52,915 bases of DNA from a virus. Its lineage: Duplodnaviria; Heunggongvirae; Uroviricota; Caudoviricetes. Of this stretch, positions 3,591-31,790 are shown piece after piece. The stretch covers positions 1 through 52,915 of IMG/VR virus record IMGVR_UViG_2909288124_000003, one strand, 5' to 3'. Each line of letters begins with the position of its first letter. Within the stretch, counting starts at the first letter, position 1. Under the pieces are notes generated by a model that was given only the letters and a program-made list of their open reading frames with translations, had not been told where the DNA came from and made no database searches. The position numbers and the translations under genes were made by a program.

Positions 3591-6500
3591 TCAGAACACC
3601 CCCGTTAATCGGCCAACCTGCACTCTCAGAACGTTGTTGCCATCCTTGACGCTGATTGTCTGGTTGGTCTGCTTCATGGCTCCCTCCCCAGCTGTCGAAC
3701 CGTAGTTCTCAAACGTCCCGGACTTATCCAGTTTCCAGCCTACTGAGCCAGCCACATAGTTATTCGACTGGATGAAATTGCCGATTTTTGCATTGCTGAT
3801 GGTGCCGTCCTGAATGAACGTTTCCCGGATGAACGTCTGCCCGTTCTGTATCACGAAAGGCAGCGACACAACGGCACCGGCCTGCGTGGTAACAGCAAAA
3901 CGGTCTGCCAGAAAAATTACCTGTGATTGCATGCCGCCAGGTGTATTTTGTACCCCTATGCCCATACCTGCAGCGTAATACTGGCCGTTAGCGGCAACGC
4001 CAACTTTGATGTTGTACATCGCGTTTAGGTTGCCGTTTACATCTGCCACCGCCTGCGCCGTCTGGTTGATGGCTGCAGTCTGCCCGTTCACTGTCACCGT
4101 CAGAGAGTTAATCTTCGTGGCGGATGCCTGGGTGAAATCAGCCAGTGTCTCCGTCAGGTCGGTCGCGTTCGAAACATTCCCACCCGCAGACGCATCAAGC
4201 GTAACCAATGCCCGGGCAACCGCCTGGCTGGTATCGGCAATGGTGGTGTCTATCCGGTCAATTTTTGCGACATTGCCGTTATTGGTGGCAGTCTGGGAAC
4301 GGCGGGAAGTCACCTGCGCCAGGCTGTTCTGGATCACGGCAATTGATGAGTTTTTGACACCGCCGGTCATGCCGTCCATCGACACAGAAATCTCGTCGAT
4401 CTTCACTTCGGCCTGAGCCAGCCCGTCAGCGTTCTCCAGGATGTCTTTCGCCTGCTGCTCGAGTTCGTCGGCATGGTTTTTAATTTCGTCAGCCATGCCA
4501 GCAATTTTTTCGTTGCTGTCCACCGCGTTCTCGATCAGGTCTTTGAACGTTTCCGACTCTTTCATATCCTCCAGAATGTCATTAGTTATTTCGCTGACAT
4601 CTATCGAGGACGTGCCCATGATCCAGTCGGTCCAGTCCCCGGCGTTACCGATACGGTCAATCAGGCGCGCGCGGTACCACTGGCGAACGCCGGCAGGCAT
4701 GGGGCCATGCTGATAATCTGCAGCCGGGTACGGCACCAGGACCAGCAGTTCAGGATTGGCGTAGTCGGCAGTTGTGGCGCGCTGAATCTCTGTATAGGCC
4801 GTGTCGCCTGAGCCATCCGGAAATTTCCAGGTCAGGTCGATATGCCAGACCACATCTTCGGTCGCCAGGAAGTTGAGCGGAGTACCCGGTTTTCCCGTTT
4901 TACCGGAGAGATAAGTTGTTTCACCGTATCCCCATGGTGACGACGTATCCTGCGCATTCAGCGCCCGTACGCGCACGTCATAGCTGCCCGAATAAATGCC
5001 CTGAACCGAGAAACCCTGCGCGCTGGTAACCGGAACGTTTATCCAGTCCCCGTTGTCCTTACGCCACTGGGCAACATACCGGATTGCGCCCTCTACCTTA
5101 TCCCATGACACGTCCAGGCTTGCTACAGTCAGCCCCTGAGACACATGATCGCTCTCAGTCACCACGATATTCTTCGGAGCAGACAGGACGCTTATCGGCG
5201 TGACGGTGATCGGGGGAGACTCGACCCGAACGCCGTCATCGATGTAACGATATTTGTTTGGATCGTGCTGAACGGCCGTAATAGTGAAACCGCCTGTACT
5301 GTCGTCGTTAGCCGCGATTGAGGTGACCCTGAAGTACTGTATTGCGAGGTTATCACTGTCTATCGCCCAAACAGCGCCCGCCACAGGAACCTGACTGAAT
5401 GCCGTAGCCACCGTCACCGTTTTTTTATCGGCGCTCACCGCGCTGATTGTCCGCGTCTGGGCTTTTCCGTCGGGAAGGTTAACCACCAGCCGGTCTTTCG
5501 CCGCGTAGTCTATTTCTCGATCGAGGGTAATTTGGCGGCCGTTGGCCGCGCTTATACGGCCCCCGTTCTCCTTACCAGAGCGGAAAGGATCGGCGACACC
5601 GATAATTTCAGCGGGCAAAGGGATATAACCGTCCAGCCCCACGCCAAACGATACGGTCCCGTCTTTGGCATTGGAGAGCAATACCCAGCGACCGCGTCGG
5701 TGCGCTTCACTTTGCGAGGTGCAGCCGATTGCGGTCAGGGACGTCTGCCGGACGTCGTAACGTTCTACAAGCGCCGAATCGTAAACCCCCTCAACGGTAT
5801 CGCTGTAATGGTTCTGCGGATCGGACCAGGACACCAGGCAGGAGCTGTAGCGATTCTTGTATGAGCCGCCCGCATAAGTAAACAGCCCATCGATAACGTT
5901 TGAGACGTTATAAACCCAGTCAACATCGTCCTGCGGGACGTCTGCCTGGACATAAATCTGATCGTTGCCCCAGAACGTTATTCCACGAAATACCGCGGCG
6001 AGATCGTTAAGTACCTGCCAGGCGTCCTCCTGGCTCTGAATGAAAACGTTGCAGGTGAAACGCGGTTCGGTGCCACCGGCCCCGTCGGAAACCATTTCGT
6101 CACAGTACTGGGCGATTGAATACAGCGCCCACTTATCCACCATGGACGCATCCACGCGCGTGCCCATGCCGTAAATTTCATCCAGAACCAGATCGTAAAA
6201 GATCCAGGCAGGGTTATTGGACCATGCCATTTTGAACCCGCCGGACCATGAACCAGAATAGGTTCGGGTTTTCGGATCGTAATTATCCGGAACCTTAATC
6301 AGCTTGCCTTTTATCTTACAGGTCACTTTCGGCGCGCTGCCGTTGAATTGGCTGCTGTCCACTTCGACATACAGGAGCGCTGTTAAAGGATAACGAAGCT
6401 TGCTGTCGATGACTTCCGCATACGAAAACACCTTGAAGGCGTTAACCAGTTTCGAATTTGATCCGCTGGCATCAGCCGTAATACGCCTGACCCTGACAGA

Positions 6501-7082
6501 CCAGCCGGACGTGGATTTTGGCAGATCGATACGGTGGTCACGCTGATATTCCGTCGTGGTCTTTCCGTCAAACTTGCCGTTTACAACCGTTTTCCAGGCG
6601 CCGCCGTCCGTTGATAAATCGATCGCATACTCGGTGACCGTGCCCACCATATCGCCATTATCTTTATAGAGATACTGGACCGGAAGGCTGAGCTTGATAC
6701 GGATGGCATCCAGGGAAAGGTTTGTAAACTGGCGCGTCCAGGGCGCGGTGGTGGTGACAGTTGTGCCCACGGCCAGCTCGTTGTCGACCTGGGGCATCCC
6801 GGCAATATAGGTCTGGTCCTGTGTGCCCTTGCGGAACTCCCATTTCACGCCGCTGAAGTTGTATTCCCCGCTGTCGTTTGCCAGCGGCGTATCGTTGAGA
6901 AAAATGTTCTGAGCGGTCAGGTCGCCCTGTATTTCCCCCTCAGAAACGGCAATGAGCATTTTTAATTTTGCGACCGACAGCAGATCGTCAGGCTGCTCAA
7001 CCGGAGTATGTGAACTGCCACCTCCCCCTTTGGCACCCTGCAGGATGGTTTCTTGTTTAAGAAGCTGCATTTTTTCACCCAT
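3591..7082 (-). CDS. Tail tip / host specificity protein J (central tail fiber)
   Basis: 1163 aa with the lambda J N-terminal region; the length matches lambda J (1132 aa). Confidence 0.85.
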   Translation of the reverse strand: MGEKMQLLKQETILQGAKGGGGSSHTPVEQPDDLLSVAKLKMLIAVSEGEIQGDLTAQNIFLNDTPLANDSGEYNFSGVKWEFRKGTQDQTYIAGMPQVDNELAVGTTVTTTAPWTRQFTNLSLDAIRIKLSLPVQYLYKDNGDMVGTVTEYAIDLSTDGGAWKTVVNGKFDGKTTTEYQRDHRIDLPKSTSGWSVRVRRITADASGSNSKLVNAFKVFSYAEVIDSKLRYPLTALLYVEVDSSQFNGSAPKVTCKIKGKLIKVPDNYDPKTRTYSGSWSGGFKMAWSNNPAWIFYDLVLDEIYGMGTRVDASMVDKWALYSIAQYCDEMVSDGAGGTEPRFTCNVFIQSQEDAWQVLNDLAAVFRGITFWGNDQIYVQADVPQDDVDWVYNVSNVIDGLFTYAGGSYKNRYSSCLVSWSDPQNHYSDTVEGVYDSALVERYDVRQTSLTAIGCTSQSEAHRRGRWVLLSNAKDGTVSFGVGLDGYIPLPAEIIGVADPFRSGKENGGRISAANGRQITLDREIDYAAKDRLVVNLPDGKAQTRTISAVSADKKTVTVATAFSQVPVAGAVWAIDSDNLAIQYFRVTSIAANDDSTGGFTITAVQHDPNKYRYIDDGVRVESPPITVTPISVLSAPKNIVVTESDHVSQGLTVASLDVSWDKVEGAIRYVAQWRKDNGDWINVPVTSAQGFSVQGIYSGSYDVRVRALNAQDTSSPWGYGETTYLSGKTGKPGTPLNFLATEDVVWHIDLTWKFPDGSGDTAYTEIQRATTADYANPELLVLVPYPAADYQHGPMPAGVRQWYRARLIDRIGNAGDWTDWIMGTSSIDVSEITNDILEDMKESETFKDLIENAVDSNEKIAGMADEIKNHADELEQQAKDILENADGLAQAEVKIDEISVSMDGMTGGVKNSSIAVIQNSLAQVTSRRSQTATNNGNVAKIDRIDTTIADTSQAVARALVTLDASAGGNVSNATDLTETLADFTQASATKINSLTVTVNGQTAAINQTAQAVADVNGNLNAMYNIKVGVAANGQYYAAGMGIGVQNTPGGMQSQVIFLADRFAVTTQAGAVVSLPFVIQNGQTFIRETFIQDGTISNAKIGNFIQSNNYVAGSVGWKLDKSGTFENYGSTAGEGAMKQTNQTISVKDGNNVLRVQVGRLTGVF

Positions 7083-7742: not shown

Positions 7743-8454
7743 GCATTCTGTCCTTATGCCTGACCACCCGGACCGTTCTGTCGCGATAATATTTTCCATA
7801 AGGCGTTCGCGAAGAAAGGTGCCCGAAAAGATGATGGAGAATGATGTTATCACCCACATATACCGCGGCGTGATTAGTCACCGATGCCTGCACACTCATC
7901 ATGATGATATCTCCGGGCTGCATTGCACCGGCGGCAATCTCAACGAATCCCTCACGCTCCCAGTTGTCGTCGTAGAGACGCTCCTTGCCGCTCTCCCACC
8001 ATTCGTAAGGTACTGAATAATTGCCGAGAACAATGCCGTATTCGCGCAGATAAAATTCACGGATAAGCGACCAGCAGTCGGCGTAACCCAGCACCCACTG
8101 CCGCCCGGCATAATCCCGGTCTTCACGCGGGGAAATCGTACAAAAATCCCCGTCCGGCCAGGACATGATCCCCCACTCAATCCCCGACCAGTCGCACTGG
8201 ATCCGGTCCAGCTCTGAGGGCACCAGCCGAACCACATCCGGATGGGAATGAATGAGCATGATGATCTCACCGCGCGCGCGGGCAGCGAGCTGGTCTTCCG
8301 GGGAGAGCGTGAATGTCTCCTCGGGTTTATCGGCAATGTTGCGGCAGGGAATAAAGATTTGTTGCTGGCCTGACTGAACAATCAGGCCGCAGGCTTCTTT
8401 GGGGTATTCAGCAGCGACGTGCTGACGGATAGCATCCAGCAATTTTTCACGCAT
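7735..8454 (-). CDS. Tail assembly protein K (NlpC/P60 and MPN-like)
   Basis: Lambda K-like sequence with an HSHP motif. Start trimmed to MREKLLDAIRQH just after the L start. Confidence 0.7.
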   Translation of the reverse strand: MREKLLDAIRQHVAAEYPKEACGLIVQSGQQQIFIPCRNIADKPEETFTLSPEDQLAARARGEIIMLIHSHPDVVRLVPSELDRIQCDWSGIEWGIMSWPDGDFCTISPREDRDYAGRQWVLGYADCWSLIREFYLREYGIVLGNYSVPYEWWESGKERLYDDNWEREGFVEIAAGAMQPGDIIMMSVQASVTNHAAVYVGDNIILHHLFGHLSSRTPYGKYYRDRTVRVVRHKDRMHG

Positions 8455-8456
8455 TT

Positions 8457-9194
8457 TTATTTCCCCTGCAGGTTTGCAGCCGGAAAACCGCCGAACGGCA
8501 GCGGCGCATCCGGGCCGTGACGATCCTGACAATCCTGCCGGCGGCCGCCACAAACATCTTTCGACGGGTCATCGGTCGGTGTACCGTCTTTGGTAAAGTA
8601 TTTCGTGCCGTTGTAATCGCATCCGGTCCCGCTTCGGTACCAGCCCCGCATACACCAGGTGCAGACAGGCGTAATCTGCCGTGTCGGCAGCTGCAGGCTC
8701 TGAATATCGAAAGGAGAACACAGCTCGAAATCAACCTGTACCCGCGTCTCTGCGGTTTTAGCATTGACGTAAAAGAGCTGTAAGCGCTCATCGGCCGGGC
8801 TGGCACCCGGATTACCGTTTTTCCAGTTGGCGGCATCGAGATACTTCGAAAGCGTGGTATGGATTTTGACCTTAGCCCTGACCATATCGTCATATTCAAG
8901 ACACAGCGCGGTGACATAGTTTCCGACGTTCCCGACGGACAGCGTGGGCGTTGGCTGGGAACCTGTACTCGATAACTCCATCCCCTTAAGTTCGTAGGGA
9001 TGGGGATCGTACTGGTTTCCCTGCCAGATAATGGCGGGCAGATTTTCTGCGGCGAAGGCTGCCCACCCCTCTTCCTGAATATTGTGCGCATGAAAACGCA
9101 GCACCTGATCCATACCGAATTCAGTGCCGTCGATCTCAATCAGCTGAATAACGCTGCCGGGCTCAAGCTGTTGTATGTCTGCCGTAAAACTCAT
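8457..9194 (-). CDS. Minor tail protein L
   Basis: MSFTADIQQLEPGSVIQLIEIDG... with the C-terminal cysteine cluster typical of lambda L. Confidence 0.8.
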   Translation of the reverse strand: MSFTADIQQLEPGSVIQLIEIDGTEFGMDQVLRFHAHNIQEEGWAAFAAENLPAIIWQGNQYDPHPYELKGMELSSTGSQPTPTLSVGNVGNYVTALCLEYDDMVRAKVKIHTTLSKYLDAANWKNGNPGASPADERLQLFYVNAKTAETRVQVDFELCSPFDIQSLQLPTRQITPVCTWCMRGWYRSGTGCDYNGTKYFTKDGTPTDDPSKDVCGGRRQDCQDRHGPDAPLPFGGFPAANLQGK

Positions 9195-9250
9195 ACTCCC
9201 CCCATAAAAAAAAGCCGCCCGGAGGCAGCTTTCAGTGTTTTTCGAGAAAA

Positions 9251-9589
9251 TCAGGGCGCGAACGCCTGTTCAAAAGTGAAGGCCACAGTGGCTTTTTTCC
9301 CGGTAGGGAAAGAAACGCTGAACGAATCGGCCTTCATTCTGAACAGCTTTTTTTCACCCCATGGAGTGGTCCACCAGAACGATTTAGTAACGTGAGACAT
9401 CAGGAAAGCGCGCAGCGCAGCCGCCTCCTGTCTGGTGCCCGTCCAGTCCAGGTTCCACGTTTCCTGTTTGTCGTTGATCCCCATCCCCGCTATCTGTTTG
9501 TAGCCATCCCCGAACTGGGCCTGCAGCGTTCGGGCTGTTTCAGTGCCCTGCGCTGTTTTTCGCGTGCGCCAGGTAAACGTGTCCGTCAC
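9251..9589 (-). CDS. Minor tail protein M
   Basis: 112 aa, lambda M-like, overlapping the H stop. Confidence 0.75.
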
Positions 9590-24035: not shown

Positions 24036-24572
24036 TCATTTTCGTAACTTCTCAATCTCTCGTATACCCGCCAGGTTATTGTTGCCCTTCTCAATAACAG
24101 CCAGCAAAGGTTCAATCCAGAGGACGGCCTGGCAATACGTCATTGAGCTGGCGGCAGCGGTACTATCATCGGTTGCGTTAGTGTTCCCGGTATCGGGGTG
24201 CATTGCGCTGGCACGTAAACGGTACGCGTATTTGAGCAGCCCACCAGCGACATCAGCAGGAACAGGCAGATCACAGGTCTTTTCACGTCGGAGAATCTCC
24301 CGGTATTCGATGACAGTTTTCTCAGTACCGGCATCGATCAGCGAGTTAAGGCGGTTGGCGTTCTCTGCTATCTGGTTAAACCGATTGAAGTTGAAAGCCT
24401 GTGTAGTTATCACCGTCGCCTGCAGCGCGTTATCATTACGTAATACCCGATTCTCACTCTGTTCTGTTTCAAGAGCTGAGCGGCTACGAACCAGTAATAC
24501 GCTAAGCACTGCAATAATGATTACGACAGCCACCAGCAGAACCGCAACAATCGTAATTTTTCTGGGTTTCAT
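24036..24572 (-). CDS. i-spanin Rz
   Basis: N-terminal transmembrane helix then coiled coil; contains an embedded out-of-frame lipoprotein ORF. Confidence 0.7.
   Translation of the reverse strand: MKPRKITIVAVLLVAVVIIIAVLSVLLVRSRSALETEQSENRVLRNDNALQATVITTQAFNFNRFNQIAENANRLNSLIDAGTEKTVIEYREILRREKTCDLPVPADVAGGLLKYAYRLRASAMHPDTGNTNATDDSTAAASSMTYCQAVLWIEPLLAVIEKGNNNLAGIREIEKLRK
24140..24334 (-). CDS. o-spanin Rz1 (embedded in Rz in an alternate frame)
   Basis: 64-aa ORF with lipobox LVGCS and a proline-rich mature part, wholly inside the Rz gene. Confidence 0.55.
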   Translation of the reverse strand: MPVLRKLSSNTGRFSDVKRPVICLFLLMSLVGCSNTRTVYVPAQCTPIPGTLTQPMIVPLPPAQ

Positions 24573-25144
24573 CAGAATACCCCCGGAACTGATACCGGAA
24601 TGCCAGGGTTAAGCGGCCCGAGTCCATCCCCCAGAACCTGAGGTTTCTCTGCCCACAGGCAAACTTCACGCTCAATCTCACGCCTCGTGATTAAACCCTT
24701 CCACTGTTTGTCACCAGCATAGATCCAGCGCCGCAGTTGTTCGCATGCGCCTTTCGAATCACCCTGGTTGATTTTTCGTAACAGTGTGGAGGTTTTGAAG
24801 TTTCCCGCGCCTACGTTATACGCAAATGAGTACAGCGCCCCTCTCATCGTTTCGGGGATCGGAGCATTGATATATGGGTTAATCTGTCGGGCGACAATAT
24901 TCAGGTCTTTATCCAGCAGCGCCTGGCACTCTGCTTTGGTGTAGGTCTTGCCGAGGATAATATCTTTACCAGTATGGCCCCAGCATACAGTCCACACTCC
25001 AACAACATCCCGATAAGGCTGATAGCGTACACCTTCAAGGCCATCATTACCCGTTGGGCCAGTAATCAACGCCGCAGCGATAGCAATAGCGCCAGCGGGT
25101 ATCGCTGCAATAACGCTATTCTTCAGCTTTGGTGGCATAGCCAT
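24572..25144 (-). CDS. SAR endolysin (phage 21 R-like lysozyme, GH24)
   Basis: Gly/Ala-rich N-terminal signal-anchor-release helix followed by a lysozyme region ([11 protein letters not shown]) resembling phage 21 R. Confidence 0.8.
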
Positions 25145-26210: not shown

Positions 26211-26285
<75 letters not shown>

Positions 26286-26288
26286 ATA

Positions 26289-26364
<76 letters not shown>

Positions 26365-26366
26365 AG

Positions 26367-26440
26367 TGGTCCGCCACCGGAGCCTCGAACCCCGTACCAC
26401 AACACCTGGGTTGCCGCTCTTCCCGATGAGCTAGTGGCGG
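26367..26440 (-). tRNA. tRNA-like sequence with non-canonical anticodon arm (possible pseudo-tRNA or unusual tRNA)
   Basis: Canonical acceptor, D and T arms and CCA, but the anticodon stem pairs only with a 6-nt loop (CCAGGU) in my manual fold; 74 nt. Confidence 0.4.
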
Positions 26441-26442
26441 TC

Positions 26443-26519
26443 TGGTGGCCCTTGCTGGACTTGAACCAGCGACCGGGCGATTATGAGTCGCACGCTCTAA
26501 CCAACTGAGCTAAAGGGCC
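26443..26519 (-). tRNA. tRNA with CAU anticodon, tRNA-Ile2 (lysidine) type
   Basis: Anticodon loop CUCAUAA; sequence resembles E. coli ileX-type tRNA rather than initiator or elongator Met. Confidence 0.65.
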
Positions 26520-26644: not shown

Positions 26645-27595
26645 ATGATTTTTATTAAAAACGGCAATAGCTTTGATCGCATTAATGACTGGACAGAAAT
26701 TCAAGCTCGGGAAAGCTATCATTCCAGGCTGGAACTGACCGATCAACAATTATCCGATGTTTTTGGTTATTATGATGACCTCCCGGAAGAAATCCCGTGT
26801 GGCAAGTCGAGCTGTCGAACAGGCCATAAAAAAGGGTTTCTTGTTCTTACTGAGGATGGTCTGGAGACGAACCTGGGTCACGTTTGCGGTACAAAAGTCT
26901 TCGGTATAGCATTTGAAAACCTAGCCACTGACCTCGAGAAAAAGGCAAATTTCCACAGATATCTAACAGCCCTCAAGGAAGCCAAGAAAAATATTTTTCT
27001 CCATTACCAAGCAAAAGCCAAAATCGAAGCCAGTGAACCATCATTAGAATGGGTCGCACATAAAATTTTAGATTTAAGAGATTCTAAAGTAGTTGGCCGA
27101 GCCGGGAGTCAAGCTTTGAAACGTATGGCTGCTTTAGGAGATGGAAAAGTTTTACTTCCCAGAAGGAAAACCAAGGAAGAAATGCAGTTGTCGAATGTTA
27201 TGTCTCAAAAACCTTCCGATAACGAAGATGAAAATGCTGAGGATAATGTAAAACCACAATTCATCGACGAAGTAATTGGCATTGTTCGTAATCCTGAATG
27301 CCTCCTCAACGATTATAACATAGCGCTAATCTTCGAAAGAGATATTCGCCTTGTGCTGGAAGAACTCAATAATTGCAATCCTGACGATATTCCTGAGAAG
27401 AAGGTCATGTCATTAGGATTAAAAGTTTCCAGGCTGAATGAAAGATTTCAATTCCTTCAGGATCGTTTTGAGAAAGCATGTATATATCTCACAAAGGAAA
27501 ACTTTAAACCTTTAAATCATCAACTACATTTGAAAAAATCAATTAGCAATAAAGATAAGGCCCTTTTCAGTTCTTTCGTTAACTCGCTGCCATAA
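26645..27595 (+). CDS. Hypothetical 316-aa protein, AT-rich cargo gene antisense to the late operon
   Basis: Clean ORF with RBS AGGGAAG, low GC relative to the phage backbone, no recognisable motifs, ends at a bidirectional terminator shared with the late leader. Confidence 0.5.
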   Translation: MIFIKNGNSFDRINDWTEIQARESYHSRLELTDQQLSDVFGYYDDLPEEIPCGKSSCRTGHKKGFLVLTEDGLETNLGHVCGTKVFGIAFENLATDLEKKANFHRYLTALKEAKKNIFLHYQAKAKIEASEPSLEWVAHKILDLRDSKVVGRAGSQALKRMAALGDGKVLLPRRKTKEEMQLSNVMSQKPSDNEDENAEDNVKPQFIDEVIGIVRNPECLLNDYNIALIFERDIRLVLEELNNCNPDDIPEKKVMSLGLKVSRLNERFQFLQDRFEKACIYLTKENFKPLNHQLHLKKSISNKDKALFSSFVNSLP

Positions 27596-27703: not shown

Positions 27704-28540
27704 CTAAATTTCGTCACCTTCTTCGCCTAAACTGGTTGCAGATTGAAATTCTCTTGCGGCGTTTCCCTCCTCCTGCTGACAAATGCTTACCAGCGCCTCA
27801 AGAAACGGTTTCCAGTTGCGAGTCCATGTTCTGACGTGCAGATCCGGAACGCGCTTCAGTATCACTTTATAGGCTGCGGTAGACGGCACCGCAGAAAATC
27901 CATTTCCGCTGCAGCGCTCGCAGGTTTTAAACACCGGCGCGCCGCGCTCGCTTGTGGCCTTGCGGTCTAGAACCTCGCCTTTACCGCCGCAACGACAACG
28001 GGCGCTGATCGTTCCCTTGCCTTCGCAAGCATCACAGACCGCCGGTACAACCTCTGTTACCTCCATCCACTGCTCCCAGTCAGACGGTCGAACAGCACGA
28101 GAGCGGCAGGCCCAGTATGGAGCTTTACCCCATGGGTACGAAACCTTGCGGGTAATCTGTTCGCGGGTTGTTCGTCCGGTACCACTGCAGCTGTGACACG
28201 TCACGCTTGTAGCCGCCGAACGTGAATAATCAGCAAAGGCAAATTGTGCCAACATCTGCATGCACCATCCGAACTGCCCACCAGCTGCTTTGCGAACATT
28301 CTTCGGTGCGACATCCATCGCATATCGCGCCAGCGCCTGAACTGCGAGCTGTTCATCCGTTTTGCTGATTCCCGCTTTACCGAAGAACGCCGCCAGTCCG
28401 AAGCGCGCACGGCTGCTGGTGGTGCCAATTGCCGCCATTACATCTGTTCCTGTAAGGCGGTCCGGAGAGGTTCCTTTCACGTCGTCGCTGATGTGCATAC
28501 CCTGAGGGCTAAAGTGTTTTAGTGAAGCTTCAAGTTTCAT
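27704..28540 (-). CDS. Antitermination protein Q (lambda Q family, 278 aa with extra Cys-rich insert)
   Basis: Matches lambda Q blocks: FSP..., L(S/T)GTDVMAA, FAYADY(C/S)RSAAT, C..C.GTGR, P(A/S)(S/T)AAY. Confidence 0.75.
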   Translation of the reverse strand: MKLEASLKHFSPQGMHISDDVKGTSPDRLTGTDVMAAIGTTSSRARFGLAAFFGKAGISKTDEQLAVQALARYAMDVAPKNVRKAAGGQFGWCMQMLAQFAFADYSRSAATSVTCHSCSGTGRTTREQITRKVSYPWGKAPYWACRSRAVRPSDWEQWMEVTEVVPAVCDACEGKGTISARCRCGGKGEVLDRKATSERGAPVFKTCERCSGNGFSAVPSTAAYKVILKRVPDLHVRTWTRNWKPFLEALVSICQQEEGNAAREFQSATSLGEEGDEI

Positions 28541-28543
28541 ATC

Positions 28544-28894
28544 TCAAACCCTCGTTACGTTGCTGGCTTCCCACTCGAGATCAAACTCGCTTTGCGGCTT
28601 ACCGACCAGGTAGTTAAATGGTTTTTTCTCGCCTTCCAGGAACTGGTGAGAGCGAGAGTCGAAATTAGCTCCGATGTCACCGATCCACCCTTCGCCCTCT
28701 CGTTGCTTCAACAAGCGAATCATTGAGGCAGGAAGATTGATTGCGGCCTGTTCGTCTTTGTCGAGGCTCTCATAACCCATACGGTCCGCTTTTGTTTCTG
28801 CGATACTGGTACCGCGAGATTTACCCAGACCAAAGGCACCTGCAATTGCTGCCAGCGCGGCAACAATCAGGCCGATAATCATTTCAAGTCCCAT
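28544..28894 (-). CDS. Membrane-anchored protein at the end of the second lysis cassette (possible spanin or lysis accessory protein)
   Basis: Start trimmed to MGLEMIIGLIVAALAAIAGAFGL (one N-terminal TM helix) with a soluble C-terminal region. Confidence 0.35.
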   Translation of the reverse strand: MGLEMIIGLIVAALAAIAGAFGLGKSRGTSIAETKADRMGYESLDKDEQAAINLPASMIRLLKQREGEGWIGDIGANFDSRSHQFLEGEKKPFNYLVGKPQSEFDLEWEASNVTRV

Positions 28895-28901
28895 AGTGAC
28901 C

Positions 28902-29516
28902 TCACACCAGTGCGGCTTTAGCTTTGGCGTAACGTTCACGGCGGTCTTTAATGCCGTTCTGCCCGCCGTTAATAATCTGCGTGACGCGTTCCACATCCCC
29001 CGAATAGAGGAGACAACCGCGTAACGTGAAGTACCATGCCGCCGAACGGGCCGCGTGTCGCTCTTGCGTCAATAGTTCCGGAGTGCTCACAAGGTCAAGC
29101 TTCAGCGCCGTACCGCATTTGGTGTAGTTCTCACGACCAGTGATTTGCAGCAGGCCACGACCGCGATATTTCCAGCCATCACCCTGACTGTTATTCCCCA
29201 TGCGGTCACCATAAACCAGATTGGCTATTTGTGGCTGGTGAGCGACCTGTTTACCATCGACACGCCCCAACATTTCGCACTGATACGTCGTCAGGCGCTT
29301 ACCGAAGGTTTTCTTCAGCCCTTCAACCGAGTAGTTAAAGTTCTCTACCAGCGAGGTAAAGCCATTGGATTCATGCCCAACTTGTGCAATGAACATGGCC
29401 TGATCGTTAGCTGCTGTGATTCCAAACTCTTTCATTGCAGCATCAATGTGCGGAAACCAGCGCGCAGCTAACCCGGCGCTAATGCCAGCCGCCTTTTGAA
29501 ATTGTGATTGGTTCAT
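28902..29516 (-). CDS. Endolysin, GH19 chitinase-like lysozyme
   Basis: 204 aa with lysozyme-like blocks (FIAQVGHESNGF, GRGLLQITG, AAWYF), following two small membrane proteins. Confidence 0.65.
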   Translation of the reverse strand: MNQSQFQKAAGISAGLAARWFPHIDAAMKEFGITAANDQAMFIAQVGHESNGFTSLVENFNYSVEGLKKTFGKRLTTYQCEMLGRVDGKQVAHQPQIANLVYGDRMGNNSQGDGWKYRGRGLLQITGRENYTKCGTALKLDLVSTPELLTQERHAARSAAWYFTLRGCLLYSGDVERVTQIINGGQNGIKDRRERYAKAKAALV

Positions 29517-29797
29517 TAGTGCCTCAGATGATCAACCAGGCGCGCAACGTTGCCTCTGACGGCCACTAGCACGGAAAGGAAAATAATGTTGGCCCCAATA
29601 GTGGCCCATGACGAATGAGGATAAATCCCGCACAGGTAGGCCAGAGGCACAGCGCTGTACGTGACAGTAATTAGCCAGGCTAAACGCGAAACCCACGGAC
29701 GATGGCGTGAATCACCACGACGATAAAACATCAGGGTAATCACCACCCCGACGCATAGAAGAGCGTTGATTGTTGCCGATGGGTCATTTAGTACCAC
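29516..29797 (-). CDS. Holin-like membrane protein (3 predicted TM helices)
   Basis: 93 aa with three hydrophobic segments, immediately upstream of the endolysin. Confidence 0.5.
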   Translation of the reverse strand: MVLNDPSATINALLCVGVVITLMFYRRGDSRHRPWVSRLAWLITVTYSAVPLAYLCGIYPHSSWATIGANIIFLSVLVAVRGNVARLVDHLRH

Positions 29798-30170
29798 CAG
29801 AACCTCCCCGGCGCGTTATCAGCGCCACCAAAGAGCCGACATCCTGGTTGTTCAGGAACGTCAGGATTTTGACAGCTAAAGCCGAAACGATTACGGCACC
29901 GATGGCATCCAGAGGCTTATCACTGTAACCAGTCCAGTCAGCCAGCTTTGAACCAACCAGCCCTGAGCAGATGATCCCGGCGATGTAGGACACGACAAAA
30001 TACGCCAGCCGGCGCGCTGCACTCAGGTCCGCGGCGGTTGCAATGTAAAATACAGCCACGGCAAATGCGCCAAACACCACGCCGTAATCGGTTCCGGAAA
30101 CAAATCCATAGACACTGGCTCCCGTCAGGACACCACCAGCCAGCCCAGTACCGGAAATCGGATCGGACAT
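29784..30170 (-). CDS. Holin-like membrane protein
   Basis: 128 aa, Gly/Ala-rich with multiple hydrophobic helices; first gene of this lysis cassette. Confidence 0.45.
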   Translation of the reverse strand: MSDPISGTGLAGGVLTGASVYGFVSGTDYGVVFGAFAVAVFYIATAADLSAARRLAYFVVSYIAGIICSGLVGSKLADWTGYSDKPLDAIGAVIVSALAVKILTFLNNQDVGSLVALITRRGGSGGTK

Positions 30171-30324
30171 TTAGCCCCCTCTTTATTGCTGTGAGTCCTC
30201 TCAGAATGAGGGGAATAAAAAAGGTCACCAGCGGCGACCTAGAGGTGAGTACTATTTTTTACATTAGGGTGATAAGAGGTCATATTTAATTTAAGCCTCA
30301 TAGAGGCTAGGTGTAAAGAACAAG

Positions 30325-31074
30325 TTATTTCCATTTAAATGAATCAATAACTTTCTGAATTATATCACGCACAACCTCTAATGTTTCACGTGTAACATCA
30401 ACCTTGCCGTAACTACCATTACCCATTGTGCAACCGAAACTAGAACCAGACAAATGACTAATAACAAGTACACCACCCTCAGATTTTATTCCACCATCAT
30501 CAATGGGTTGTAACTCAATCAATTTACCTCGTTTCTTTCCTAATACTCTATCTTCAATATGGTGTGATGAGTCTCTGACATGAATTAAATCTGGAAAAGC
30601 CTCACCCATCATCATTTTAATTTTAGATATTCTACTTTGGACTTCTGGTTCCTCAGGAAGAATATTAATTATTTTTTCGATTGTATCCAATGAATATAAA
30701 AATGATTTCGCATATATAAAAGGCAAGCTATGTTGCAAATAACTTGGTAGTTTCCCTTCATTTAATTTTTTTTGATTAAGGATTGATTCTACTTTTTTAC
30801 TTAACTTATCATGATTTTCAAAAACACTTAAGTCAAACTCATGTTCTATAGATTTTTGAATTTGAATCCTTTCCTCTCTGTCTTCCAACCATTCTCTTCT
30901 AGATTCAAAAGCGCCTTGTACATTCGCTATTTCTCTATCAAAAAATAAAAGTGACACAAATGCTTCATTAAAACAAGACTCTAACTGACTGATAATACGC
31001 TCAACATTTCGAGACCATTGGCTATCATCACTGTCGATCCAACTCCCAGGTTTAACTAACTCCATAATTTCCAT
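30325..31074 (-). CDS. Hypothetical 249-aa protein, AT-rich moron directly downstream of the Q-like gene and its terminator
   Basis: Clean ORF, low GC, no recognisable motifs, flanked by terminator-like hairpins. Confidence 0.5.
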   Translation of the reverse strand: MEIMELVKPGSWIDSDDSQWSRNVERIISQLESCFNEAFVSLLFFDREIANVQGAFESRREWLEDREERIQIQKSIEHEFDLSVFENHDKLSKKVESILNQKKLNEGKLPSYLQHSLPFIYAKSFLYSLDTIEKIINILPEEPEVQSRISKIKMMMGEAFPDLIHVRDSSHHIEDRVLGKKRGKLIELQPIDDGGIKSEGGVLVISHLSGSSFGCTMGNGSYGKVDVTRETLEVVRDIIQKVIDSFKWK

Positions 31075-31138
31075 TTCGCCTCCTGATTATCATCATTTAA
31101 CTCAATTTCTCATCTAATATGATAACCAAAAAGGACAC

Positions 31139-31161
31139 AAAAAACCCGCTCAATGGCGGGT
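31139..31161 (-). terminator. Rho-independent terminator downstream of the Q-like gene (tR'-like)
   Basis: Minus strand CCCGCCATTGAGCGGG followed by TTTTTTG. Confidence 0.5.
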
Positions 31162-31211
31162 TCTTGATGTTTGTTGCTCAGTTCGCTTTAACGTCCCGAG
31201 CCTACCACAAT

Positions 31212-31790
31212 TTAAGCACTTTCTTGCTCACTCTGCAACTTAAATCTGTCGCTATTTGTGCCGAATGCGTCACAAACTGGAGCGTACAGGATCGATTCTG
31301 CAAGACTTAGCCAAGTGTCAATGCGTCGACGACAGGTGATCAGCGGCCAGTCAGGATGTTTAGCCTGCAGTTCATTGGCCATCTGCAGCTTGCTCTTGCG
31401 TAGGCGATGGCGGTCGACAATCACGCTATAGAGCGATCGGTAGTCATCATTCATCAGTACAGAAGCAATGACACCATCCACTAACAACCCTTCTTCGTCT
31501 GAACAGAACGCCAGGCCGCTTTTATTTTTGCTGTTGAGGATTTCACGAAGGTACGCTTCAAGTTCAGGTTTGGTGATGCCTGATTTCTTCATACGGCGAA
31601 GCGCATCATTGATAGCTGTCTTGGTGATTTTCCCGGATGCCAGAAGCTGGTTAAACATGTTCCCACCACTACCACCGCCGATATAAGACCAGCGGCCCCA
31701 CATGCGCAACTTACCCTGTATCCAGATGCTTTCCAGAGTACGAAGACGAACCATTTCACCAGATTTACCAACTTCAGAAGGATTAATCAT
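31212..31790 (-). CDS. Putative second antitermination protein (Q-like, different family from the one at 27704..28540)
   Basis: 192-aa basic protein in the canonical Q position (after the nin-like genes, before a terminator and a lysis cassette). The family assignment is from my recollection of 82-type Q motifs, not a search. Confidence 0.4.
   Translation of the reverse strand: MINPSEVGKSGEMVRLRTLESIWIQGKLRMWGRWSYIGGGSGGNMFNQLLASGKITKTAINDALRRMKKSGITKPELEAYLREILNSKNKSGLAFCSDEEGLLVDGVIASVLMNDDYRSLYSVIVDRHRLRKSKLQMANELQAKHPDWPLITCRRRIDTWLSLAESILYAPVCDAFGTNSDRFKLQSEQESA

Follow-up and report, generated by a model that had tools for sequence, protein, structure and literature searches.

An AT-rich gene between the Q-like antiterminator and holin genes of an Escherichia coli prophage: a moron predicted to encode a HEPN-type ribonuclease

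The window analysed here, 52,915 nucleotides of a Caudoviricetes record in IMG/VR (IMGVR_UViG_2909288124_000003, positions 1 to 52,915), matches at 100% a stretch of the chromosome of Escherichia coli FAM21845 (NZ_CP017220.1), which is annotated as an isolate from raw-milk cheese. The locus under study is a lambdoid prophage read on the minus strand. Between its Q-like antiterminator gene and its lysis genes lies an AT-rich open reading frame (ORF) of 249 amino acids (aa), designated ORF249. The slot from Q to holin is the one held by stx in Stx phages (933W-type), and the question is therefore what kind of gene occupies it in this prophage and what the product does. ORF249 is a horizontally acquired cargo gene, or moron, in a variable slot reaching from the Q terminator to the holin. 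Its product is a predicted cytoplasmic helical protein with an HEPN-type active site.

ORF249 (WP_081178110.1; 30325..31074, minus strand) starts with ATG, 4 nt after a Shine–Dalgarno sequence AGGAGG at 31084-31079. Its GC-content is 32.8% (22.8% at third codon positions), compared with 48.2% for the Q-like gene, 52.5-55.6% for the holin and endolysin genes and 49.4% for the window. The ratio of non-synonymous to synonymous substitution rates (dN/dS) is 0.16-0.20 versus homologues of 65-71% identity, and purifying selection acts on the gene. An exhaustive HMMER search found 762 related cluster representatives (clusters at 50% identity) at E ≤ 1e-3, and 535 with the limit set at E ≤ 1e-10; almost all have a length of 250-270 aa. 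AlphaFold2 with a deep alignment gave a confident model, with a pLDDT (predicted local distance difference test) of 95.8 and a predicted template modelling score (pTM) of 0.90. Because of the low dN/dS, the large set of relatives and the quality of the model, ORF249 is regarded as a genuine gene.

The boundaries of the insertion are sharp. DNA similarity to E. coli prophages with the same Q module stops at ~31135, just past the T-run of the terminator, and similarity to prophages with the same holin module restarts at 30224-30240, at the second hairpin. Between these ends of sister-prophage homology lies a low-GC block (30241..31133, minus strand) with a GC-content of 32.9%. In the same slot E. 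coli D10 (locus L011) carries an unrelated 198-aa hypothetical protein (WP_000220228.1; 2027-2623 of that locus, minus strand), and E. coli MB06232 (locus L012) an unrelated 178-aa protein with a weak HemY_N match (WP_134393419.1; 3560-4096, minus strand). Neither of these cargo proteins has a PADLOC match. Thus, ORF249 shows three marks of a moron: it lies between genes that in related phages are direct neighbours or enclose other cargo (homology breaks at ~31135 and ~30240), it deviates in base composition (32.8% GC versus 48-56% in the flanking genes) and it has its own terminator directly downstream (hairpin and T-run, 30240-30214). The original prediction, made from the sequence alone, described an AT-rich 249-aa gene as the first after a Q-like gene and its terminator, flanked by hairpins and placed in the moron slot where stx sits. 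All of this agrees with the coordinates, the DUF1133-type Q gene upstream, the terminator-like sites at 31165-31140 and 30240-30222, the homology breaks on both sides and the other cargo of the sister prophages.

It also proposed looking for conserved synteny after Q genes in other prophages, and such synteny is found. The exact ORF249 gene is present in one of 5,426 complete E. coli genomes, and a paralogous type of 40% identity in 25 of them. Of the 15 IMG/VR viral contigs found in a search with alignment A1, 14 have the homologue placed after a Q gene and before a holin. The same placement was found in 13 of the 14 enterobacterial genome or metagenome loci fetched for close homologues. Together these make 27 other enterobacterial loci, with protein identities of 32-100%, in which the slot is kept. 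Homologues in the slot are combined with three Q families (DUF1133, PF06323 and PF03589) and with at least three lysis cassettes: holin_8 and holin_3_7 with a GH19 endolysin, holin_3_1 with GH19 or lysozyme, and another holin with lysozyme. The exception among the 14 fetched loci is one of Citrobacter freundii (CP056910.1; locus L007), where a homologue of 41% identity (6001-6795 of the locus) lies outside a prophage late region. Genes for IS3-family (rve) transposases stand on both sides of this copy, which adjoins an autotransporter gene; the arrangement in the sequence suggests that it was mobilised as a composite transposon.

Two intrinsic terminators on the minus strand enclose the cargo. 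The first, tR'-like (GAACCCGCC-loop-GGCGGGTTC and a T-run; 31134..31165), lies between Q and ORF249 and is part of the Q module. Its hairpin at 31165-31140 has a folding energy of -17.9 kcal/mol. The six aligned loci, D10 with its different cargo among them, show no variation in it, and this same element also follows another Q family in locus L030. The second (AGGTCGCC-GCT-GGTGACCT and a T-run; 30214..30240) lies between ORF249 and the holin, with its hairpin (30240-30222, -11.8 kcal/mol) shortly before the holin start at 30170. A hairpin and T-run precede the conserved 5' untranslated region (UTR) of the holin in all six loci compared; since the stems differ among them, it is the structure of this terminator that is conserved and not its sequence. 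The region holds six terminator-like sites, versus 1.6 +/- 1.4 in shuffles. In loci with the two other Q types a terminator again stands before the homologue and another after it. The holin 5' UTR (30173-30213, minus strand) is itself nearly invariant in the six loci; its CCCCTC at 30213-30208 is complementary to the holin Shine–Dalgarno sequence GAGGGGG (30181-30175), and there is also a small CCTC/GAGG hairpin. Judged by this complementarity, translation of the holin may be controlled.

A candidate PR'-like late promoter (TTGCAG, a 17-nt spacer with TG at -15/-14, and TTAAAT; 31210..31238, minus strand) overlaps the Q stop codon. It lies below the threshold of the promoter consensus scan; the arrangement TTG..-17-TGnTT[AG]A[AC]T is retained in four diverged DUF1133-Q modules (alignment A3). 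The same alignment demonstrates that the Q 3' end, a conserved segment of ~45 bp and the terminator are common to all DUF1133-Q modules, whatever cargo follows. Transcription from this candidate would give a leader of ~65 nt ending at the terminator. Expression of ORF249 after Q antitermination, which the original prediction expected to be strong, is predicted from its position alone.

The only family assignment of ORF249 is phrog_5322, of unknown function (E 1.5e-73). The original prediction saw no recognisable motifs in the protein, and in this it was mistaken: the family has an invariant motif R-[DN]-S-x-x-H-x-E-[DE]-R, which contains an Rx4H of the HEPN type. In ORF249 the motif, predicted to be catalytic from its conservation, reads R167-D-S-S-H-H172-I-E-D-R176 (codons 30547..30576, minus strand). 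Among 146 diverse members R167 is conserved in 99%, H172 in 100% and R176 in 99%; other conserved positions are E174, D175, D130, A122, F125, G107, P110, G220 and W248. The family consensus is VRNSxxHxEDR, the residue after R being D in ORF249 and N in the consensus. The ten most divergent members, including a Marinitoga phage protein, retain D-x3-K and R-[ND]-S-x-x-H-x-E-x-R, with R167, H172 and R176 invariant. The D-x3-K element corresponds to D130-x3-K134 (codons 30673..30687, minus strand), which lies on the long helix before the motif and is a candidate for the second, acidic element of the HEPN active site. D130 is present in 92% of the 146 members, and in the divergent set the D is invariant and the K nearly so.

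The modelled fold of ORF249 is a helical bundle. Long helices are predicted at 18-53, 55-79, 85-105 and 111-141, followed by a helix at 146-159. The motif is placed on a short helix (163-176) that is broken at 171-173; a beta-rich insert (179-226) and a C-terminal helix (229-243) follow. HEPN domains are described as four-helix up-down bundles with Rx4-6H at the end of helix 3, often with a local distortion of the helix, a polar residue after R, an upstream acidic residue in helix 2 (Ex3[KR]) and inserts between helices; in Csx1 a beta-hairpin directly follows the motif (PMC3710099). The motif and the predicted helices appear to agree with this description. Rx4-6H followed by a polar residue (N, D or H) after R, as required in the same survey (PMC3710099), is found in the ORF249 family. 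The acidic element, in helix 111-141, is D and not E, and its proximity to the motif is putative. No hydrophobic segment, signal peptide or transmembrane segment is apparent in the ORF249 sequence.

Homology searches gave signals below significance. ORF249 matches no Pfam family at E ≤ 0.1, has no significant NCBIfam match and has no match in PADLOC-DB v2.0.0 at E ≤ 1, the best E across the family being 0.0011. Sequence searches of the PDB, both with the single protein and with a profile, returned chance matches only, and Foldseek against BFVD, a library of viral structures, found nothing at E ≤ 0.001. When alignment A5 of the most divergent members was used to bridge to annotated families, it reached unannotated relatives only. 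Over-long family proteins were checked for informative fusions, and only a likely read-through fusion with an integrase fragment was found. The sub-threshold matches of family members to hidden Markov models (HMMs) are Abi_2 (E 0.006, ending at the motif of member P0185), Ribonuc_2-5A (E 0.12, spanning the motif of member P0012), RTasHEPN in three members (best E 0.0011) and CARF_HEPN (E 0.005). In addition, one member of 41% identity is named "HEPN AbiU2-like domain-containing" in UniRef. The invariant R167-x4-H172, R176 and D130-x3-K134, the helical bundle and these sub-threshold HEPN matches lead to the reading of ORF249 as an HEPN-type ribonuclease (RNase), and we consider it fairly probable that the protein is an HEPN-fold RNase.

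What such an enzyme would do for the prophage can be approached through the distribution of its relatives. A homologue is the sole cargo of the 4.2-kb Psychrobacter plasmid pA53P1, the rest of which consists of rep, a relaxase gene and mobC; no literature was found on this plasmid. Acinetobacter, Proteus and Klebsiella have further homologues on small plasmids. The homologue in an islet of Pseudomonas putida adjoins an Abi_alpha gene, in a conjugative element with a type IV secretion coupling protein it lies near HEPN_AbiV, and in an integrative element it is at the integrase end. Relatives are also found in Psychrobacter, Deinococcus, Azospirillum and Marinitoga phages. No neighbour gene is conserved beside family members in the contexts examined, and mobile elements seem to carry the gene as an accessory module complete in itself. 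A search of the available text of the DefensePredictor supplements for the protein accessions gave no match.

This solo distribution on mobile elements, and a motif matching that of recently described solo HEPN abortive-infection proteins, favour a defence or exclusion RNase. We hold the chances to be about even that ORF249 is a single-gene abortive-infection or exclusion RNase carried as a moron. In the scheme that we infer, the putative HEPN homology and RNase activity would be joined to a defence role, a phage-borne trigger and expression in the lysogen. Drawn by analogy with other solo HEPN defence proteins, it would have ORF249 act as a metal-independent RNase, with D130/K134 and R176 in supporting roles. 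A low level of ORF249 would be produced in the lysogen, through a leak past the tR'-like terminator or by a weak promoter belonging to the gene, and the protein would be kept inactive, with a dimer or oligomer as the probable form. Some component of the phage in an infection would then activate it, and the active enzyme would cleave transfer RNA (tRNA), messenger RNA or ribosomal RNA, so that translation stops and the infection is aborted. The downstream terminator would shield the lysis genes from cargo transcription at the lysogen stage. After induction, RNA polymerase modified by Q would pass both terminators, and ORF249 would be made with the late operon.

Several points weigh against this defence reading. 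Tha is active in the lysogen and shut down at induction (PMC11087260); the late-operon position of ORF249 is opposite to this logic, and it suggests expression mainly in lytic growth. No convincing sigma-70 promoter was found in the 65 bp between the terminator and the ORF249 start; the best candidate (ATGAGA-16-GATAAT, 9/12) has its predicted start inside the Shine–Dalgarno sequence. Better promoter-like sites occur between terminator and ORF in homologous loci, namely ATAACA-17-TATAAT (10/12) in L030 and TTAAAA-18-TATTAT in L014. No significant match to any HEPN family was obtained in Pfam (141 members), NCBIfam, PADLOC, the PDB profile search or BFVD. However, Tha-1, an experimentally validated HEPN protein, is also only sub-threshold in Pfam, so the absent match of the ORF249 family is not strong counter-evidence. 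R167 and H172 are a putative catalytic pair, with a putative placement relative to the bundle and to any dimer interface. No experiment on any member of the family was found.

The same late-operon position is the starting point of the best-surviving alternative, in which an HEPN-type RNase serves the phage's own lytic programme and not the protection of the lysogen. Large amounts of it would be made from the late transcript antiterminated by Q. The enzyme could break down RNA of the host or of competitors, silence responses of the host, keep out satellites or phages that co-infect, or aid late development. ORF249 is first in the late operon after the tR'-like terminator, and the window copy lacks a convincing promoter of its own. 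Moreover, the slot is kept with three Q families and several lysis cassettes over 32-100% identity, which suggests that the expression context matters. Against this, homologues exist without any late operon, on the 4.2-kb plasmid and other small plasmids, in the conjugative element and in islets beside Abi genes. Sister prophages lack ORF249, and the gene is therefore dispensable for lytic growth. Some homologous loci have a good promoter between terminator and ORF (the L030 site given above), and the terminator after ORF249 suits an independently transcribed unit. On balance, we consider a role in the lytic programme rather unlikely.

A more specific proposal is that selection would keep a family of solo HEPN-type RNases as the first gene of the Q-dependent late operon, to be made together with the lysis and virion proteins, as a late-phase weapon or timer of the induced phage; it merits still less credence. 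The RNase might, for example, destroy RNAs belonging to competing phages, to satellites or to defences of the host once the cell is bound to lyse. If true, it would reverse the regulatory logic of the known prophage HEPN defences Tha and HepS and raise the question of how the phage spares its own late translation.

The absence of a conserved neighbour bears on another alternative, that ORF249 is a stabiliser of the toxin or addiction type. Here a growth-arresting RNase would be held in check by an antidote other than a neighbouring protein (an antisense or small RNA, or self-inhibition), and what the element would gain is its own retention and not phage defence. None of the contexts examined has a conserved partner ORF alongside, and the cargo-specific flanks are only 84 bp and 65 bp, with no type III-like repeat array noticed in the flanks read. 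A single gene alone cannot give post-segregational killing. We regard this alternative as improbable. A protein toxin–antitoxin pair was rejected, as there is no conserved neighbour and no room for one.

The conserved residues, in turn, argue against a non-enzymatic protein, that is, a helical-bundle adaptor or regulator (of lysis timing or late transcription, for example) in which the R/H/R residues bind a ligand or partner. R-[DN]-x3-H, E-[DE]-R and the upstream D-x3-K recur across ~760 diverged clusters, as active-site residues would. The ORF249 sequence has no hydrophobic segment, and the family is found on plasmids and islands without lysis or Q genes. This role also appears poorly probable. 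The original prediction noted that homology to a lysis accessory or structural protein would count against it; no such match was found in Pfam, PHROGs, the PDB or BFVD. There is no obligatory linkage to lysis genes either, as homologues occur on plasmids and in islands that lack them, and ORF249 is most likely not a lysis or virion part. A lysis accessory role was rejected on account of this distribution and of the lack of a membrane segment. The genomic slot shared with stx suggests a factor in virulence or host interaction, by analogy with Shiga toxin, but this is very improbable. ORF249 shows no apparent signal peptide or transmembrane segment, and the searches revealed no similarity to any toxin family; non-pathogens and environmental organisms are among the carriers of relatives, and the host strain comes from raw-milk cheese. 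An exported Stx-like toxin was rejected on the lack of a signal peptide and the environmental relatives.

The remainder of the prophage provides the genomic setting of the cargo. On the minus strand the integrase, early and replication genes are followed by genes for RusA, an antirepressor and a DUF968 protein. Then come the Q-like gene (31212-31790), ORF249 (30325-31074), two holins and a GH19 endolysin. After the endolysin there is a truncated spanin-like ORF and a second, unrelated Q gene (PF03589, 27704-28540), and the series ends with a reverse-oriented 316-aa ORF, tRNA genes, a second lysis cassette and the terminase and virion genes. The first Q-like late-gene antiterminator (192 aa; 31212..31790, minus strand), directly upstream of the ORF249 cargo, matches Pfam DUF1133 (E 1.7e-92) and Phage_antitermQ (E 4.2e-08), as well as phrog_753, "anti-termination protein Q-like" (E 5.5e-68). 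The first holin of the lysis cassette after the cargo (29784..30170, minus strand) belongs to Phage_holin_8 (Pfam E 2.1e-32) and to the holin family phrog_198.

The spanin-like ORF (28544-28996, minus strand) is truncated and chimeric, with an Rz-like N-terminus and a C-terminus from a "primase" phrog. The first lysis cassette is directly followed downstream by the second Q (27704-28540, minus strand; PF03589, E 6e-54). The prophage thus has two Q/lysis modules in tandem, with the second Q within the transcript that depends on the first. Tandem modules are also present in E. coli MB06232, so they are no single occurrence but have been propagated in a lineage. Behind the second Q, the slot contains the 316-aa ORF (26645-27595, plus strand), which is on the opposite strand and AT-rich (39% GC). 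It belongs to phrog_7003 (unknown function), has no Pfam or PADLOC match and has an identical copy in MB06232 (WP_016240226.1). Between the second Q and the second holin lies a tRNA cluster (26211-26519, minus strand) with Gly(TCC), Thr(TGT) and Met/Ile2(CAT). An aberrant tRNA-like element with a 2-nt "anticodon" at 26367-26440 was called by ARAGORN only. The prophage tRNAs for Thr and Ile deserve mention as the nuclease HepS, discussed below, cuts tRNA-Thr and tRNA-Ile (PMC13043305). According to the record annotation (locus L001), the genes for the portal protein (7781-9304) and tail assembly protein T (2640-2903) are incomplete pseudogenes, and the MT-A70 methyltransferase gene (24247-24915) is interrupted by a stop codon. 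These lesions raise the possibility of a defective prophage, in which case it is doubtful whether expression driven by Q ever happens in FAM21845.

If the prediction is true, ORF249 represents a widespread, unnamed single-gene RNase module of ~760 clusters that current defence-finding tools miss. Its range would extend over prophages, small plasmids and conjugative elements, and from Enterobacteriaceae to Deinococcus and Thermotogae phages. Because the position after the terminator is stereotyped while the Q gene belongs to any of three unrelated families, the junction from Q to holin can be defined as a hotspot for cargo in lambdoid prophages beyond stx, and the other cargo of sister prophages indicates that this slot could be mined systematically. 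ORF249 also offers a natural case of how a phage's own late operon tolerates a putative RNase that is potentially self-toxic. The protein is small and soluble, with a confident model and two obvious predicted catalytic residues, and the hypothesis is cheap to test.

With regard to known systems, stx and other morons, in the sense of Hendrix and Juhala, occupy the same slot, after Q, the late promoter and the terminator and before the holin. Like the slot cargo of lambdoid phages, the ORF249 block is of low GC-content, has its own terminator and is replaced in sister phages. It departs from the moron pattern in that a promoter of its own is not clear in the window copy. Unlike stx-slot cargo, the product is predicted to be cytoplasmic and RNase-like, neither a secreted toxin nor a membrane protein.

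Among HEPN proteins, HepS of the Salmonella prophage Gifsy-1 is a solo abortive-infection tRNA anticodon nuclease triggered by the tail-tip protein J (PMC13043305). HepS and ORF249 are both single-gene and prophage-borne, with no conserved partner and with a canonical Rx4H, and both were recognised by structure prediction and motif and not by Pfam. HepS may therefore serve as a model for the action of ORF249, by analogy as an inactive oligomer that a phage protein triggers to cleave tRNA. The second precedent of solo abortive infection is Tha, the tail-activated HEPN protein of Staphylococcus aureus prophages (PMC11087260). A comparison of the family profile (alignment A2) with Tha-1 of phage 80alpha in hhalign gave a probability of 0.15% and an E of 0.4, that is, no relationship. 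Tha belongs to the cI operon, its expression ceases at induction and an antisense gene, ith, counters it (PMC11087260), whereas ORF249 belongs to the late operon and lacks a partner of this kind.

AbiU2 of Lactococcus is classed among the HEPN families and conserves an Rx4-6H motif (PMC3710099); in Vibrio mimicus an integron cassette of the AbiU2 type (HNPBCG_15845) protects against T4 and T7 (bioRxiv 10.64898/2026.03.17.712381). The sole pointer from ORF249 to AbiU2 is the UniRef name of one family member, which has no visible basis in the HMM scans run. PF18734 (HEPN_AbiU2) is not among the matches listed for 141 members (most-matched families, best E 0.011), is absent from the Pfam scan of P0012 at E ≤ 10 and, like the other Pfam HEPN models, had no match reported at E ≤ 0.1 among the 141 members. 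The supplement of the HEPN survey (PMC3710099) contains no AbiU2 alignment. Vpc_cass2, an integron-cassette HEPN protein (PDB 3jrt), is only 12-13% identical to ORF249, and generic bundles score equally; it has 166 residues versus 249 and is without the beta-rich insert. By the tests run, ORF249 lies outside HepS, Tha, AbiU2 (Pfam) and all PADLOC systems, and it may resemble HepS, Tha or AbiU2 in action by analogy. ORF249 is best described as a member of a new, unnamed family of HEPN-type solo effectors carried as prophage morons.

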